Notes under the pieces: generated by a model
Database searches by the model: none
Seen by the model: the letters and a program-made list of their open reading frames with translations, nothing else
What the model was told of the DNA's origin: nothing
Assembly (NCBI GenBank): GCA_038851755.1
Contig: JAWCKR010000005.1
Location: forward strand, 1-64,000
From: Candidatus Hadarchaeales archaeon
GTDB taxonomy: Archaea > Hadarchaeota > Hadarchaeia > Hadarchaeales > WYZ-LMO6
DNA: 64,000 bases
Direction: 5' to 3'
Made by a program: the position numbers and the translations under genes
In this document: piece after piece, positions 9,952-57,909 of the stretch
How the letters are laid out: each line of letters begins with the position of its first letter
How positions within the stretch are numbered: the stretch's first letter is position 1

Positions 9952-10752
9952 ATGGAGAGCAGGACCGAGGACCGCCTGAAGGAGAGGATGTCCAGGATCA
10001 GGCACAAGGTGGCGGTGCTCAGCGGTAAGGGTGGGGTGGGGAAGAGCACCTTCACCGCCAACCTGGCCCTCGCCCTCTCGGTGAGGGGCCACCGGGTGGG
10101 CATCCTGGACGCCGACCTCCACGGCCCCAGCATCCCCAAGCTCCTGGGCATGAGGGGAAGGAGGATGGAGGGAGGAACCCCCGTGGAGGGTCCAGCGGGG
10201 TTGAAGGTGGTCTCCCTGGACTTCCTCCTACCGGACGACAGCACGCCCCTGATCTGGAGGGGACCGATCAAGGCGATGGCCATAAGGCAGCTGCTGGAGG
10301 AGGTCGAGTGGGGTGAGCTGGACCTCCTCCTCATCGACCTCCCCCCGGGCACCGGGGACGAGCCCCTGAGCATAATACAGGAACTCCCCGAGATGGACGG
10401 GGTCCTCATCCTCACCTCCCCCTCCGAACTCTCCGCCTTGGTGGTGGGAAGGGCCGTGGGCTTCGCCAGGAAGATGGGCGTGAGGATCCTGGGGATAGCG
10501 GAGAACCTGAGCGGGTTCACCTGCCCCAGGTGCGGGGAAACCGTGAGGATCTTCGGGGAGGGAGGGGGAAGGAAGATGGCCGGGGAGCTCGGGGTGCCCT
10601 TCCTGGGCGAGGTCCCCCTGGACCCGCACCTCTCCGAAGACTCGGACCGGGGTGAGCCCTTCGTCCTGAAGAGGCCAGAGGCCCCCGCTGCAAAAGCCTT
10701 CCTGGAGCTCGCCGGAAGGCTGGAGCAGGAGCTGGGGCTGAAAAGGCTTTAG
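9952..10752 (+). CDS. mrp: Mrp/NBP35 (ApbC) Fe-S cluster carrier ATPase
   Basis: SGKGGVGKST, DADLHGPSIP, IWRGP, DLPPGTGD, CPRC. Confidence 0.95.
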   Translation: MESRTEDRLKERMSRIRHKVAVLSGKGGVGKSTFTANLALALSVRGHRVGILDADLHGPSIPKLLGMRGRRMEGGTPVEGPAGLKVVSLDFLLPDDSTPLIWRGPIKAMAIRQLLEEVEWGELDLLLIDLPPGTGDEPLSIIQELPEMDGVLILTSPSELSALVVGRAVGFARKMGVRILGIAENLSGFTCPRCGETVRIFGEGGGRKMAGELGVPFLGEVPLDPHLSEDSDRGEPFVLKRPEAPAAKAFLELAGRLEQELGLKRL

Positions 10753-13172
10753 AAGAACCTCCCCAGCCTGGTCTGCTCCCCACCCGGTGAGCGCAGGTCC
10801 TCCTCCCTGTATCCCAGCACCTCCATGATCCTCATCACGGCGGGGAGGACCTGGTGCTCCACGTAGTAGCTGGCGTCGTACTCCATCCTCTCCGGGTCGA
10901 AGTCCTCCACGGGGGTGGCCCTGTCGCTTATGCTCCCCGGCCCCTTCACCTCCACGTAGGCTATCATGGTCCCGGGCTCCACCGGATAACCTTTCTTCCT
11001 GAGCTTCTTGGCCGCCACCACGTGCGGCCCTATCGCCCTGTAGCTCTCTATGGGCATCTTGAGCTGGGTGTAGATCACCAGGTCCTCCAGCCCCACCTTC
11101 CCCCCCTGCAGCTCCCTCACCACCCTCTTGATGATCTCCGCAGCCTTCCTGGGCGATCCCTCCCTAAGGATGGCGTCCAGCACCTCCTGCTGGGTGCGCT
11201 TGGCCACGGCCGCCCAGTCCCTGCGCACGAACTCCAGACCCTTCACGATGAGCCTCCCCTCCTCGTCCACCAGGGCGTACCTCTTCTTGGTGATGAAGAC
11301 CCCCCTCGGGTAGAAGCCCTCCAGCTCCAGCTCCATCACCCCGGGCAGCTCCCTGTTCACCTCCTCCAGGAACCTCAGGATCTCCTTCCTGCTCTTCCCC
11401 CCCGTCCTGCAGTAGAGGCCGTCGGTATCGGCGTACACCACCTCCATCCCCTCCCTCTCCGCCCTCGCTATCGTCTGGTGGATGTAGTGTCTGCCCAGGC
11501 TGGTGATGCTCTCCGCGCACTCCTTGGAGTACCACCTGGCCCTGGCGTACCCGAACATGCCGTAGAAGGAGTTGGAAACGATCTTCAGGGCCATCTGGCG
11601 GCTGTCCAGCTCCAGGTACTCGGGGGTTCCGGGCCTCAGCTTCTTCAGTTCCTTCTTCAGCTCCGCCCTCCTCTCTATCAGCCGTTCCAGGATGGAGGGG
11701 ACGAAGCCCTTCCTCTTCCTGCAGAACCTGTAGCCCAGCTCAGGGACCACCGTGGCCTCCTCCGGGCCGCAGCAGTCGCAGTTCAGGGTGGAGGGGTCTA
11801 TGTTGTGGGAGACGATGATGCTGGGGTACAGCGACCTGAAGTCGAAGGCCACCAGGTCCTCGTGCAGCCCGCGCTTGGGCTCCATCACGTAGGCTCCCGC
11901 GTAGGTCTCCTCCATCCTCTCCCCGTACTCCTCACCCCTGGGCCTCGGGGGGACCAGCTCCCCTCGTCCGAAGGCCTCCCTTATGAGCAGCCACTCCACC
12001 AGCTGACCGGGGGTCATCCTGCTCACGTCGAAGAGGGTCTGACCCACCAGCCTGGTGAGCTCCCGGAAGAGGGGGAGGAAGGCCAGACCCAGCTCCAGGG
12101 TGGCCTCGGCGTCCGAGAGGGAGTACTCCAGCAGGCGCTTCAGTTCCTCCCCTCCCCTCTCCCACGCCCTGGCTATCCCCCCCATCTCGAAGTCGGGTTT
12201 TTCCTTTCCCAGCACGTGCCTGTACACGTCCTCCAGGGTGTAGTGGATGAGCCTGATGGCCCCTATGGTGGCCAGGAAGCTCACCATGGCGTACACGTCC
12301 ACATGCACCCTCCCCGGCACCCGGGTGGCGGTGGCGAACTTCCTTCTCCTGGTCCTGGCCCCTCCCCCCTCCCTCCCCAGCGCCAGGTCCACCCCCAGCC
12401 TCCTCGCCCTCTCCCTGAGATAGGGGAAGTCGAAGAAGTCGGTGTTGTACCCCAGGAGGAGATCCACCTCCCTCTCCCGCACGAGCTCCACGAACCTCTC
12501 CAGCATCTCCCTCTCGCTCCCCACCACCTCCACGAACTCCGGAGCCCCCTCCACCTCCTTCCATGTCAGGACCTTCCTGAAGCCGCCGGGCGCCGCCAGG
12601 CTTATCATGATCACCGGATCCCTGTCCGACCTGGGGATCCCGGCGGGGTTGTGGACCTCGATGTCGAAGCTCATCACCTCCAGCTCCTGAGGGTGCTCCG
12701 GCCCAGGCTCTGGGGGGCGGGAGGCCAGGACCACGCCCTCCCTCCTCTCCCCCTCCACCCTCACCCCCTCCAGGGGTACCATCCCCCTCTCGATCAGGTA
12801 CTGCCGGGCGAGGGGGAGGTCGAAACCGTAGAACTCCTTCACCCCCGGGAGTTCCCGGATGGCGTGCCTGAGGGGGGTGAGGTGCCTGGGACTCTCCAGG
12901 AAGACCCGCACCGCCTCCACCTCCTTTCCCAGCAGCCCCCTCCTCACCACCTCCACCCTCTTCGGCCTGAGGGTCTCCCCCTTCTCCGTCACCTCCACCT
13001 TGGAAACCAGCTTGGCCGCCCTCTGGGGGTCCTCGGCGGTGAAGTAGAAGGAGGGCTCAAAGCTCGGGTCCTGCACCACCTCCACCTTCCCCCCGCGCTT
13101 GAGGTAGAGGGCCAGGGAAGGGAGTCCCTCCTCAGCCTGATCCACGTCCAGGAGAAGACCTTCGAGGATCAT
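10749..13172 (-). CDS. polB: Family B DNA polymerase (PolB3 type), no intein
   Basis: Exonuclease motifs FDIE and YNTDFFDFPYL; polymerase motifs DFRSLYPSII, KIVSNSFYG, YADTDG, KKRY; C-terminal PIP box QTRLGRFF. Start at the ATG at 13172. Confidence 0.97.
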   Translation of the reverse strand: MILEGLLLDVDQAEEGLPSLALYLKRGGKVEVVQDPSFEPSFYFTAEDPQRAAKLVSKVEVTEKGETLRPKRVEVVRRGLLGKEVEAVRVFLESPRHLTPLRHAIRELPGVKEFYGFDLPLARQYLIERGMVPLEGVRVEGERREGVVLASRPPEPGPEHPQELEVMSFDIEVHNPAGIPRSDRDPVIMISLAAPGGFRKVLTWKEVEGAPEFVEVVGSEREMLERFVELVREREVDLLLGYNTDFFDFPYLRERARRLGVDLALGREGGGARTRRRKFATATRVPGRVHVDVYAMVSFLATIGAIRLIHYTLEDVYRHVLGKEKPDFEMGGIARAWERGGEELKRLLEYSLSDAEATLELGLAFLPLFRELTRLVGQTLFDVSRMTPGQLVEWLLIREAFGRGELVPPRPRGEEYGERMEETYAGAYVMEPKRGLHEDLVAFDFRSLYPSIIVSHNIDPSTLNCDCCGPEEATVVPELGYRFCRKRKGFVPSILERLIERRAELKKELKKLRPGTPEYLELDSRQMALKIVSNSFYGMFGYARARWYSKECAESITSLGRHYIHQTIARAEREGMEVVYADTDGLYCRTGGKSRKEILRFLEEVNRELPGVMELELEGFYPRGVFITKKRYALVDEEGRLIVKGLEFVRRDWAAVAKRTQQEVLDAILREGSPRKAAEIIKRVVRELQGGKVGLEDLVIYTQLKMPIESYRAIGPHVVAAKKLRKKGYPVEPGTMIAYVEVKGPGSISDRATPVEDFDPERMEYDASYYVEHQVLPAVMRIMEVLGYREEDLRSPGGEQTRLGRFF

Positions 13173-13195
13173 CACTCCTGAGTGCCCCTGGGACC

Positions 13196-13203
13196 AAAAA
13201 AAA
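13196..13203 (-). terminator. T8 archaeal-type terminator
   Basis: A8 run on the + strand immediately 3' of the closing helix of the candidate ncRNA. Confidence 0.55.
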
Positions 13204-13204
13204 G

Positions 13205-13437
13205 TGGCGGGGATTTCGACCCGTCCGCTACTCTTTGGACGGAACCCCGAACCTCGACCACTTTCAGGGCACCGCCCTTTTTTCACGTCCCGGGTCTGTC
13301 TCCCGCGATAGGTGCATCGCACCGACCTCCCCGGTGCCTATCCGCCGCCTTCCCGGGTTTTTACCCCGGTTTTTCGGCGGCTCCCCGTTGCCCTTAGGCT
13401 CCGGTTCTGCCCCTCTCGCGGGCTTCCATCCCCGCCA
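13205..13437 (-). ncRNA. Unclassified large structured RNA candidate (about 233 nt)
   Basis: Perfect 10-bp terminal helix TGGCGGGGAT/ATCCCCGCCA, several internal helices, TATA-like TTAAAA about 23 nt upstream, T8 downstream, no credible ORF. Confidence 0.7.
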
Positions 13438-13457
13438 ATCATCTATCCTACCTGGCT

Positions 13458-13467
13458 TCTTTTAAGA
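13458..13467 (-). promoter_or_regulatory. TATA-like box for the candidate ncRNA
   Basis: CTTAAAAGA on the minus strand at archaeal promoter spacing from 13437. Confidence 0.5.
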
Positions 13468-13518
13468 GTTGTTCACCCAGAATGTGATATTCCAACCCTC
13501 AAGATATCTCCGGGTAGA

Positions 13519-14154
13519 CTATATGGAAGATTTTGAGAGGTGTGGTTTCACCTCGTAGGCGGAGGGGAAGACCCCTGCGGGACCCTCGGGGGGGATCTTC
13601 CCGGTGGGGCAGGCCCTGGAGCAGTAGCCACAGAGCTTGCAGTACTCCGTCTTGTCCGGGAAGAGGGACACCAGGCGATTCACCCCCCTGCCCACGAAGG
13701 TCAGCACCCCGTCCTGGGTGACCGAGGAGCAGGTGCGCACGCAGAGACCGCACAGGATGCACTGCTCTTCCTTCTTCCCCACCCTGTTAGCAAACCTGGA
13801 GGGGTCGGCACCGTGCTCCCGGACCATCCGCCAGAAGTGGCTCCCCTCCTTCAGCGGCAGTCCCCTGAGGGAGGCCAGCTCAAGCAGGGTCTTTCTGAGC
13901 AGGTGCAGCTCCGGGTTCCGTGTCGTGACCTTCAGGCCCTCCTCGGCGGGGTAGGAGCATGAGGCCACGATCCTCTTTCTCCCCTCCCTCTCGATCTCCA
14001 CGCTGCATACCCTGCAGGCCCCGTAGGGCTCCAGCCCCTCCCCCTGGCACAGGGCGGGGATTTCTATCCCCCCTCCCCTGGCCGCCTCCAGGAGGGTCAT
14101 GCCTTCCCTGGCCCTCACGACCTTCCCGTCGATTTCCAGCGTGACCTCCTTCAC
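13519..14154 (-). CDS. NuoG/HydA N-terminal-like 2Fe-2S/4Fe-4S protein with no catalytic domain
   Basis: [42 protein letters not shown]; only 211 aa. Confidence 0.9.
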
Positions 14155-57596: not shown

Positions 57597-57909
57597 GGCG
57601 GCGGGCGCGCCGAAGGTGGACGCCTTCGCCGCGCACCGTTGACCGGCCCCTCAGGCTCCATCCCGCTTTCCGCAAGCGCCGAACGTCCTGCCCACCCTTG
57701 CTGACTTCCGCCCCTGGGGGGTTCAGCAGGCAAGGGAGGTTCTCCCCGGCCCTCCGGTCGGGGCCCCTCCGCCGCCGACCCTGCGGGGCGGGACTTCCGC
57801 GCCCGGAACCGGGCGGTGCGAGGTTCCAGCGCCGCCCCCCGGCTTCGGCCCGGCGTGTAGCGGATTTCCGGTCACAGGGGACCGCTAGCCCCCCGCCTAG
57901 CCCGCCGCC
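57597..57909 (-). ncRNA. ffs: Archaeal SRP (7S) RNA
   Basis: Terminal helix GGCGGCGGGC/GCCCGCCGCC; Alu-domain GGGCTAGGC..GTCCCCTGT.ACCGGAAA; helix 8 CCAGG-GGC-GGAA-GTC-AGCA; about 313 nt. Confidence 0.95.

Follow-up and report, generated by a model that had tools for sequence, protein, structure and literature searches.

The 64,000-nt stretch of Candidatus Hadarchaeales archaeon DNA analyzed here (positions 1 to 64,000 of contig JAWCKR010000005.1, assembly GCA_038851755.1; hereafter the window) carries on its minus strand, at positions 13203–13437 and directly upstream of a gene for a family B DNA polymerase (polB), an element that is best explained as the free-standing gene of a stable, structured non-coding RNA (ncRNA) that belongs to a new family and acts in trans as the scaffold of a ribonucleoprotein (RNP), a reading to which we give a probability of roughly 0.7. 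Its parts differ in firmness: we have next to no doubt that the element represents a real and independent ncRNA family, which is absent from Rfam 15 and previously undescribed, and put the odds that it is a trans-acting RNP or ribosome-associated scaffold at about even. A preliminary description, made from the letters alone, had proposed a stable archaeal ncRNA, hitherto undescribed and on the scale of a ribozyme or an RNP, and this is borne out by the lack of an Rfam match, covariation among homologs, the gene's own promoter and terminator, and a transcript abundance confined to the gene. The window's genome, labelled G000 below, is represented by an assembly that is 93% complete.

A covarying fold shared by homologs

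Folded as a 250-nt stretch, the sequence reaches a minimum free energy of −125.9 kcal/mol, against −93.6 +/− 4.7 kcal/mol for 200 dinucleotide shuffles (z = −6.83), none of which was as stable (0/200). Homologs were collected from a close-relative set of 41 genomes and an order-level set of 65 genomes. BLASTN found full-length matches in 27 of the 41 related genomes, and RNAalifold, run on a MAFFT alignment of 29 of the sequences found in this way (alignment A1, all of the paralog class T1 described below), predicted 63 pairs, of which 38 show compensatory changes. From A1 we built a covariance model (R1) and aligned 93 matches to it (alignment A3). In A3, 95.3% of the cells pair, vs. 74.7% after shuffling of partners and 33.0–44.6% when partners are slid by 1–3 columns; A3 is fitted to R1 and hence biased toward the structure, and the independent MAFFT/RNAalifold result agrees in direction. 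Changes on both sides were seen in 57 of the 63 pairs, all 9 pairs of the closing helix P1 show compensatory changes, and none of 500 shuffles attained any of the five measures. The check by homologs and covariation suggested in the preliminary description thus favors a structured RNA.

The overall fold (Table 1) comprises a P1 of 9–10 bp, a three-way junction, a cloverleaf-like 5′ domain (P2 and three hairpins) and a 3′ domain. In the window's copy, the closing helix is perfect over 10 bp, with UGGCGGGGAU (13437–13428) paired to AUCCCCGCCA (13214–13205). The homologs support CCCGCGA/UCGCGGG as P2, and the third strand of the three-way junction (J3/1) is GAA. The GAAAA/GAGUAG internal loop of the 3′ domain can be read, by analogy, as a loop-E or sarcin-ricin-like motif, given the likeness of GAAAA/AGUA to what we take to be the AGUA/GAA consensus of such motifs. 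A mutual-information scan of the 93 sequences (with average product correction) revealed no pseudoknot or extra tertiary pair, the high-scoring non-nested pairs mirroring differences between paralog classes. A T-arm-like pairing at the 3′ end, GGGG-UCGAAAU-CCCC, was considered and rejected: P1 and P3 covary instead.

The internal helices that had been drawn from the single sequence fared unevenly. GCCGCC/GGCGGC enclosing CCGGG/CCCGG (hairpin C), CACCG/CGGUG (hairpin D) and a small GCC/GGC hairpin are, like the closing helix, upheld by covariation, whereas GAUAGG/CCUAUC, GGGC/GCCC and CCGUCC/GGACGG, as then paired, exist only in the G000 sequence; so does a supposed long-range pairing of GAACC..GAGCC with GGUUC..GGUUC, for which the homologs give no support. 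What they support instead are P2, P3 (GACCC/GGGUC), CGU/GCG, GGGCGG/CCGUCC and an apical hairpin that carries GUGGUCGAG.

An abundant and apparently circular transcript

Contigs of four sequencing runs were mapped on positions 12700–13900, two of the runs (X3 and X4) being sediment metatranscriptomes from one study. Over the bins at 13192–13437 the depth was 1.2e3–4.2e4 in X3 and 2.9e3–3.3e5 in X4, values that sum over related strains and paralogs and are not copy numbers. Elsewhere in 12700–13900, upstream gene included, it was 0 in X3 and 0–5.8 in X4, and 0–2 on polB. This shows a discrete, very abundant RNA with limits matching P1, and the contrast in depth between the RNA and its flanks rules out DNA carry-over. 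Metatranscriptomes had been named beforehand as a place to look for the transcript, and both X3 and X4 answer with depths of 10^3–10^5 confined to the gene.

Both runs also include back-joint contigs, in which the 3′ end of the RNA runs into its 5′ end: 13435->13204 (depth 1677 in X3 and 113 in X4) and 13436->13203 (depth 1693 in X4, with a one-base ambiguity). These joints imply circles of 232 and 234 nt, in agreement with the ~233 nt first estimated for the RNA. No back-joint was seen in X1, a run labelled metatranscriptomic that is probably DNA. We consider it likely that the circular form is real in vivo.

How such a circle would be closed is less straightforward. G000 encodes RtcB (593.8 bits), an enzyme that requires a 5′-OH and a 3′-phosphate. 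No Rnl3-type RNA ligase was found in the 93%-complete assembly, and two weak matches to PF09414 (RNA_ligase) turned out to be ATP-dependent DNA ligases. Inspection of the cut sites revealed no evident bulge-helix-bulge (BHB) motif, and none would be possible if transcription starts at P1, which leaves no 5′ flank; the 9 nt before P1 are unconserved, and the cut sites lie 0–3 nt from the same helix end. With no BHB and no Rnl3-type ligase, several ligation routes remain, namely RtcB after remodelling of the ends, an unrecognised ligase, or self-ligation. Stable ncRNAs in circular form are familiar from archaea (PMC3326292, PMC9014305, PMC4731332): Danan et al. (2012; PMC3326292) describe circular C/D box RNAs, RNase P and RNAs without assigned function, and Liu et al. 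(2022; PMC9014305) tie the circularization of C/D small RNAs (sRNAs) to an ATP-dependent RNA ligase.

Searches against known RNA families

At gathering score, the only Rfam 15 match in the whole window was the signal recognition particle (SRP) RNA at 57599–57907 (RF01857, 149.5 bits), far from the present element. Relaxing the threshold to E <= 10 for region 13100–13560 added four chance-level matches only, so that the Rfam check proposed for this locus identified no family at either setting, and a search at E <= 1 of 20 loci holding T2, T3 or weaker paralogs gave nothing relevant. No C/D family matched inside the RNA, and ARAGORN predicted 0 tRNA genes in the window. C/D box sRNAs and tRNA or tRNA-like molecules were rejected on these grounds, as was SRP RNA, whose sole match lies outside the region.

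RNase P RNA was set aside in the same way: no model matched in the region, and the canonical RNA (RF00373) scored over cut-off at other loci in 38 of the 41 relatives. Among same-genus genomes it was over cut-off in 3 of 4, the fourth having a partial match at 68.5 bits. The best RNase P match in G000 reached 17.7 bits vs. a cut-off of 84, the gene probably being missing from the assembly. For 5S rRNA, insertion-bearing form included, the region again gave no match; a canonical 121-nt 5S gene lies at C4:52894-53014 of G000 (98.1 bits), and RF00001 was over cut-off in 34 of the 41 genomes. The earlier remarks that the RNA lacks the RNase P P4 motifs and a tRNA cloverleaf and is not SRP agree with these results. 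The family is not mentioned in the literature searched, and Hadarchae/Hadesarchae are absent from the main text of preprint 10.64898/2026.10.21.760802; two papers related to orphan structured ncRNAs are PMC12054373 and 10.1101/2024.12.08.627333.

Two observations on other RNA genes of G000 were made along the way. No 16S or 23S gene was found there with four universal motifs and no rRNA operon is assembled; 5S and SRP RNA genes are present. ARAGORN also reported three "tRNA-???" with four-base anticodons (C2:79623-79715, C4:51328-51418 and C18:1657-1747), probably intron-containing tRNAs that were read without intron mode.

Paralog classes and distribution

Searches with R1 place the family in 51 of 65 genomes at order level and in 51 of 66 at phylum level, with 1–6 matches per genome. 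The matches fall into three score classes: T1 (230–277 bits, ~233 nt), which includes the window's copy, T2 (~134–166 bits, ~205–215 nt), often in tandem and ~70 nt from a T1, and T3 (~83–125 bits, ~205–215 nt), with a few weaker matches (38–77 bits) below them. P1, the junction strands, hairpins B–D, P3 and the GAAAA/GAGUA loop are common to all three classes; most of the difference between them lies at the tip of hairpin C and in the 3′-domain apical hairpin. On that apical hairpin, 42 of 45 T1 sequences carry GUGGUCGAG unchanged, and the other three retain a UGGUCGA core. G000 and the other five genomes of its family (f1) hold a single T1 copy each.

Within the order, R1 detects the RNA in 5/5 genomes of f1, 40/46 of f2, 1/1 of f3, 3/3 of f5 and 1/9 of f4; at the genus level, g5 (0/7) and g7 (1/4) stand out as poor. 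As this distribution is patchy, the RNA is not a universal housekeeping RNA. An exact IUPAC pattern derived from hairpin B was run on one genome per species (185,579 species) and matched 64 stretches, with record titles of the Hades-/Hadarchae- type (56), "Hodarchaeaceae" (5, from two isolates), "uncultured archaeon" (1), "Methanobacteriota archaeon" (1) and a bacterium (1). R1 finds a full-length member in 7 of these 8 odd-titled records, the bacterium being negative. Within the searches made, the family is confined to the order whose records bear Hades-/Hadarchae- titles. The T1 pattern had 0 matches in 2.9 million viral contigs.

In five R1-negative genomes (G010, G029, G019, G014 and G065), R1 run with filters off at the polB loci gave at best 15.3 bits. 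Two of them, the family-less g7 genomes G010 and G029, have a different GC-rich and strongly folding element directly upstream of polB (locus L236, 1321–1469, plus strand, 149 nt; locus L235, 3935–4126, minus strand, 192 nt), complete with a TATA-like box, a trailing A- or T-rich run and 10-bp closing helices (GGCGGGGAGG/CCUCCCCGCC and GGCGGAGGCG/CGCCUCCGCC). These elements score only 15.3 bits with R1 and have no Rfam match; they may represent a relative that diverged fast, or else a substitute that occupies a conserved position for an RNA gene. Just upstream of both lies a conserved hairpin-like element of ~70 nt, GGGG...CCAAGCUGGCUGGGAC...CCCC (L236, 1205–1275; L235, 1139–1208 on the reverse complement), likewise without an Rfam match.

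Promoter, terminator and genomic neighborhood

Read along the minus strand, TTAAAA (13465–13460) is followed by the 10-bp terminal helix, a single C, T8 (13203–13196) and then polB, all where the preliminary description had placed them; the parallel it drew with the layout of the window's SRP gene (terminal helix, then T-run) is also correct. Assignment of the RNA to this strand follows from the orientation of promoter and terminator and from frequent G-U pairs, which are common at many positions of the 93 sequences (e.g., UG 23 and GU 25 at single pairs).

Table 1. Position of the RNA, its parts and the adjoining features in the window.
Feature	Position	Strand	Evidence or remark
Upstream motif GGAATATCAC	13484..13493	-	f1-family form of the GA(N)ATAT(N)TC palindrome; possible transcription-factor site
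BRE (TFB recognition element)/TATA-like promoter AACTCTTAAAA	13460..13470	-	TATA 3′ end ~23 nt ahead of first base of P1
RNA, 232-234 nt	13203..13437	-	Contig depth, back-joints, fold, covariation
Circle given by junctions	13204-13435 or 13203-13436	-	Back-joints 13435->13204, 13436->13203
P1, 5′ strand GGCGGGGAU	13428..13436	-	Covariation
P1, 3′ strand AUCCCCGCC	13206..13214	-	Covariation; followed by unpaired A13205 and C13204
J1/2, GGAAG	13423..13427	-	Purine-rich, three-way junction; kept in all paralog classes
5′ domain	13302..13422	-	P2/P2a (13422-13408 with 13316-13302) closing a four-way junction; helices 2-6 covary
Hairpin B	13404-13385	-	UNCG-type loop; GA/AA internal loop; UA(C/A)G tetraloop
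Hairpin C	13380-13342	-	A-rich internal and apical loops; AAAAA/GAAGG internal loop; T1 apical loop GCGAAAAA
Hairpin D	13337-13319	-	Covariation
J2/3	13297..13301	-	AAAAAG in most homologs; GACAG in G000
3′ domain	13218..13296	-	Helices 7-10 covary
P3, GACCC/GGGUC	13296-13292 with 13222-13218	-	Covariation
3-bp helix, CGU/GCG	13287-13285 with 13228-13226	-	Covariation
Internal loop, GAAAAAA facing AGAGUAG	13284-13278 vs. 13234-13228	-	Part of 3′ domain
6-bp helix, GGGCGG/CCGUCC	13277-13272 with 13242-13237	-	Covariation
T1-specific invariant loop GUGGUCGAG	13253..13261	-	On apical hairpin of 3′ domain; exact in 42/45 T1 sequences
T8 run, archaeal-type terminator	13196..13203	-	RNA depth ends here
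polB, family B DNA polymerase gene (neighbor, outside the RNA)	10749..13175	-	Pfam PF00136 (1.4e-70), PF03104 (9.8e-26)

A scan for TATA-like 8-mers in 41 copies detected a BRE/TATA-like box in 36 of them (26/29 T1, 10/12 T2/T3), its TATA 3′ end lying mostly 19–24 nt upstream of the first base of P1; a T-rich run follows P1 in nearly all of the 41. Given the usual archaeal spacing from TATA box to start site, this puts initiation on the first G of P1 or immediately beside it. Farther upstream, a GA(N)ATAT(N)TC palindrome ends 46–48 nt before P1 in 20 of the 29 T1 genes, with one more at 64 nt (21/29), and recurs in 2 of the 12 T2/T3 genes as a shorter GATATC form; it is likely a transcription-factor site. 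Allowing one mismatch, GGAGATATCTCC exceeds its reversed control in many genomes, RNA-less ones included, and a wider regulon was rejected, as 16 extra sites have no promoter-like sequence after them and lie, by eye, apparently within coding sequence. G000 contains the f1 form, GGAATATCNC, at 6 sites vs. ~9.5 expected; one of these, upstream of a membrane-protein gene that is followed by rtcB, was attributed to chance.

The start codon of polB, either GTG 13175 or ATG 13172, lies 21–24 nt past T8, with the same spacing throughout family f1, where T8 may also act as TATA box for a polB mRNA without a leader. The genes upstream of the RNA on the same strand encode a ferredoxin-like protein and a NuoF-like flavoprotein. 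Of 33 T1 loci, 16 are followed by polB on the same strand (13 at 19–106 nt, three at 279–1029 nt), a synteny that spans several families and hence appears old, and several of these loci have a TATA-like TTTTAT between RNA and polB. The other 17 have no polB within the flank examined and, together with the T2/T3 loci, sit between unrelated and often convergent genes (22 contexts listed); neighbors of T1–T3 copies include genes for a DRG-like GTPase, a geranylgeranyl-reductase-like protein and a glnA-like protein, names given on inspection of N-terminal sequences by eye. Across genera, the chromosomal neighborhood of each paralog class is conserved. Rather than a constant 5′-leader position without a separating promoter, the family thus has its own TATA box and T-run in varied contexts. 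An attenuator-like leader of polB, which the preliminary description had offered beside an independent ncRNA, therefore finds no support as a general account: with polB behind only 16 of the 33 T1 copies it cannot explain the family as a whole, and the contig depth in two samples falls to 0–2 at the T-run.

Across the start of polB, at 13130–13179 of the minus strand, sR7 gives a weak match of C/D-box type (12.4 bits, E 2.5) that includes the strings UGAUGA and CUGA. Chance is the most probable explanation.

Complementarity of the T1 loop to the 16S rRNA tail

The T1 loop GUGGUCGAG is complementary to CUCGAUCAC of 16S rRNA, 6–14 nt from the 3′ end and directly 5′ of the anti-Shine-Dalgarno CCUCC, in the 16S of 3/3 relatives. 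In these three, CUCGAUCAC is the only 9-bp site of 16S with at most one G-U pair, and the tail is the best duplex site of 16S and 23S combined (−14.7 vs. −14.0 to −12.1 kcal/mol for the next best). Of 200000 composition-preserving shuffles of the loop, 1097 match the last 25 nt of 16S. The 16S 3′ end is assembled in 29 of the 65 genomes of the order, all 29 Hadarchaeal-type copies reading CUCGAUCACCUCC. The apical loops of T3, compared with 16S and 23S, have no site common to the genomes. In G000, where no rRNA operon is assembled, the exact complement of the T1 loop occurs at 19 sites; apart from the locus itself, their flanks, inspected by eye, gave no sign of a known RNA gene. We regard a functional pairing of the T1 loop with the 16S tail as doubtful.

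Hadarchaeal-type 16S tails read GGCUCGAUCACCUCC. The usual form of the tail, GGCUGGAUCACCUCC, turned up in two genomes alone, on additional contigs; as both genomes also have the CUCG form, these contigs are probably contaminants. As for 23S, the match in a same-genus genome (locus L231, G002:C3:22038-25606) is 3569 nt long and scores 2254.9 bits, as against 3053–3056 nt and ~2800 bits in two further genomes from the order, which suggests an insertion or intron of ~500 nt.

Proposed function and alternative explanations

As an RNP scaffold, the RNA would be transcribed from the first G of P1, or a base adjoining it, to the T-run; P1 would hold the two ends together, so that a ligase could close a circle of 232–234 nt that would be protected from exonucleases. 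The core common to T1–T3 would then offer a binding platform for one or more proteins or for the ribosome, the RNA acting in trans, and the apical hairpin of the 3′ domain, as the class-variable part, would set the partner of each paralog. The hairpin of T1, which presents GUGGUCGAG, could pair with the 3′ tail of 16S beside the anti-Shine-Dalgarno. It is tempting to carry this further, to a circular ribosome-targeting RNA in which T1 docks through GUGGUCGAG on CUCGAUCAC while the core binds the small subunit or a partner protein, to silence translation initiation stoichiometrically, to act in hibernation or to assist the maturation of small subunits as a chaperone in slow-growing subsurface archaea, with T2 and T3 aiming the same core elsewhere. 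We know of no RNA of this kind in archaea or bacteria, and consider the idea speculative and rather unlikely.

Several points weigh against the scaffold reading or its parts. The absence or near-absence of the RNA from g5, g7 and f4 makes for a patchy distribution. The contigs give neither strand, true ends nor circular fraction (a raw-read run, X9, yielded 0 mapped reads), and with an RNA this abundant, template switching by reverse transcriptase could produce apparent end-to-end joints. If transcription starts at P1, the primary transcript would lack the ends that RtcB requires, and no BHB could form. The polB synteny in 16 of the 33 T1 loci, across three families, may leave room for a local effect in cis. 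As to the 16S tail, the complementarity was found post hoc and by a small margin, 469 of 5000 shuffled loops reach an equally good site somewhere in 16S and 23S, and T2 and T3 are without the GUGGUCGAG loop; moreover, six RNA-less genomes (G010, G029, G033, G019, G027 and G011) have the same tail, so that presence of the RNA and sequence of the tail do not covary.

Other functions can be set against the same evidence, a ribozyme and a ligand binder being the two that we retain. The core could be a catalytic fold, which processes or ligates its own ends (self-circularization) or acts on another RNA: three-way and four-way junctions with many invariant unpaired purines and A-rich loops, a ribozyme-like size, a core that is the same in all paralogs under a variable periphery, and an apparent circle although neither BHB motif nor Rnl3-type ligase was found would all suit a ribozyme. 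The lack of an Rfam match to self-cleaving or self-splicing classes and of a pseudoknot or extra tertiary pair from the mutual-information scan make it nonetheless unlikely. Quite unlikely, too, is a trans-acting binder of a ligand or ion, i.e., an aptamer-like sensor or buffer detached from any mRNA. The P1-closed architecture does resemble riboswitch aptamers, and the unpaired core nucleotides are highly conserved across paralogs of a very abundant RNA, but there is neither an expression platform nor a consistent downstream gene among the loci found, ~230 nt exceeds most aptamers, and no riboswitch family matches.

A role in cis, with P1 and the T-run terminating transcription from an upstream promoter and regulated read-through expressing polB, would account for the short distance from T8 to polB, for its recurrence in T1 loci of several families (13 within 19–106 nt) and for f1 loci that have no room for a separate classical promoter between T-run and polB. 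We consider it very unlikely, in view of the 17 T1 loci without polB, the T1–T3 copies among convergent or unrelated genes, a contig depth in two samples of 10^3–10^5 on the RNA vs. 0–2 on polB, end-to-end joints that mark a discrete processed molecule, and the TTTTAT box ahead of polB in several loci. The patchy distribution, the 1–6 copies, the tandem T2–T1 pairs and the apparent circularity also recall mobile elements, viruses or defence systems (for instance an omega RNA, an RNA of the retron type or the DNA copy of a viroid-like replicon); circular omega RNAs are reported in archaea (PMC12558985). Against this highly improbable origin stand the conserved chromosomal neighborhood of each paralog class across genera, a cellular-type promoter in 36 of 41 copies inspected, loops that are all conserved where a variable guide-like single strand would be sought, the 0 T1-pattern matches in 2.9 million viral contigs, and 22 contexts in which no transposase- or integrase-like neighbor was noticed (N-terminal sequences judged by eye, no Pfam search). 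Scarcely credible, finally, is a divergent or permuted universal RNA (RNase P, 5S rRNA, SRP RNA or tRNA-like) that escapes the Rfam models. Size, closing terminal helix and multi-helix junctions resemble RNase P RNA, for which G000 has no match over cut-off, and the three-way junction and GAAAA/AGUA loop resemble, by eye, 5S rRNA; yet canonical RNase P RNA (in relatives), 5S rRNA and SRP RNA lie at other loci, ARAGORN found no tRNA in the window, Rfam gave no relevant match even at the relaxed thresholds, and the family comes in 1–6 copies per genome and is lacking from whole genera.

Significance

The hosts belong to an uncultured archaeal lineage of hot and deep habitats, and the RNA is among the most abundant host transcripts in two sediment metatranscriptomes. 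To our knowledge, new structured RNA classes of such size with strong covariation are rare, and almost none have come from archaea beyond the universal ones. Unusual here is the combination of abundance, apparent circularity with none of the usual archaeal routes found, and three paralog classes built on one core. Should an RNP scaffold, a ribozyme or a ribosome-binding regulator prove true, it would add a new component to archaeal RNA biology. The RNA would also offer a natural heat-stable circular scaffold, the R1 covariance model provides a specific marker for these archaea in metatranscriptomes, and an Rfam entry would end the reading of the locus as intergenic.

Comparison with known systems

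Archaeal RNase P RNA (RF00373 and the small type-T form) is likewise a stand-alone gene of 200–300 nt with a terminal helix, junctions with invariant unpaired purines and high abundance, whereas the present RNA is unmatched by any model of the whole Rfam library, has 1–6 paralogs and is absent from whole genera. With 5S rRNA (RF00001) it shares a three-way junction, a terminal helix of 9–10 bp and one arm with a loop-E-like GAAAA/AGUA loop, and it is close in length to the insertion-bearing 5S of Halococcus (231 nt); it differs in that no 5S model matches and that its 5′ arm is a four-way junction instead of helix II-III. The circular ncRNAs of archaea (C/D sRNAs, segments of RNase P and 7S) are also DNA-encoded, end in a terminal stem and appear joined in RNA-seq, but C/D sRNAs have a quarter of the length, and the window's RNA has no C/D boxes, no Rnl3-type ligase to go with it and no evident BHB.

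Outside the archaea, eukaryotic and bacterial Y RNAs and vault RNAs are small stable RNAs with a terminal stem, a T-run terminator, several paralogs per genome that differ in an internal module, and a role as RNP scaffolds. The likeness is an analogy of layout, with no relation in sequence, and no TROVE/Ro protein was found in the 93%-complete G000. OLE, the raiA motif and ROOL/GOLLD are lineage-restricted, ornate ncRNAs of bacteria, with A-rich loops and high abundance, known from extremophiles and anaerobes. The RNA described here has no sequence or model similarity to them and, unlike them, is archaeal, shorter (~233 nt), apparently circular and present as several paralogs per genome; lineage restriction, a conserved ornate fold, A-rich loops and abundance are what it has in common with these bacterial RNAs.

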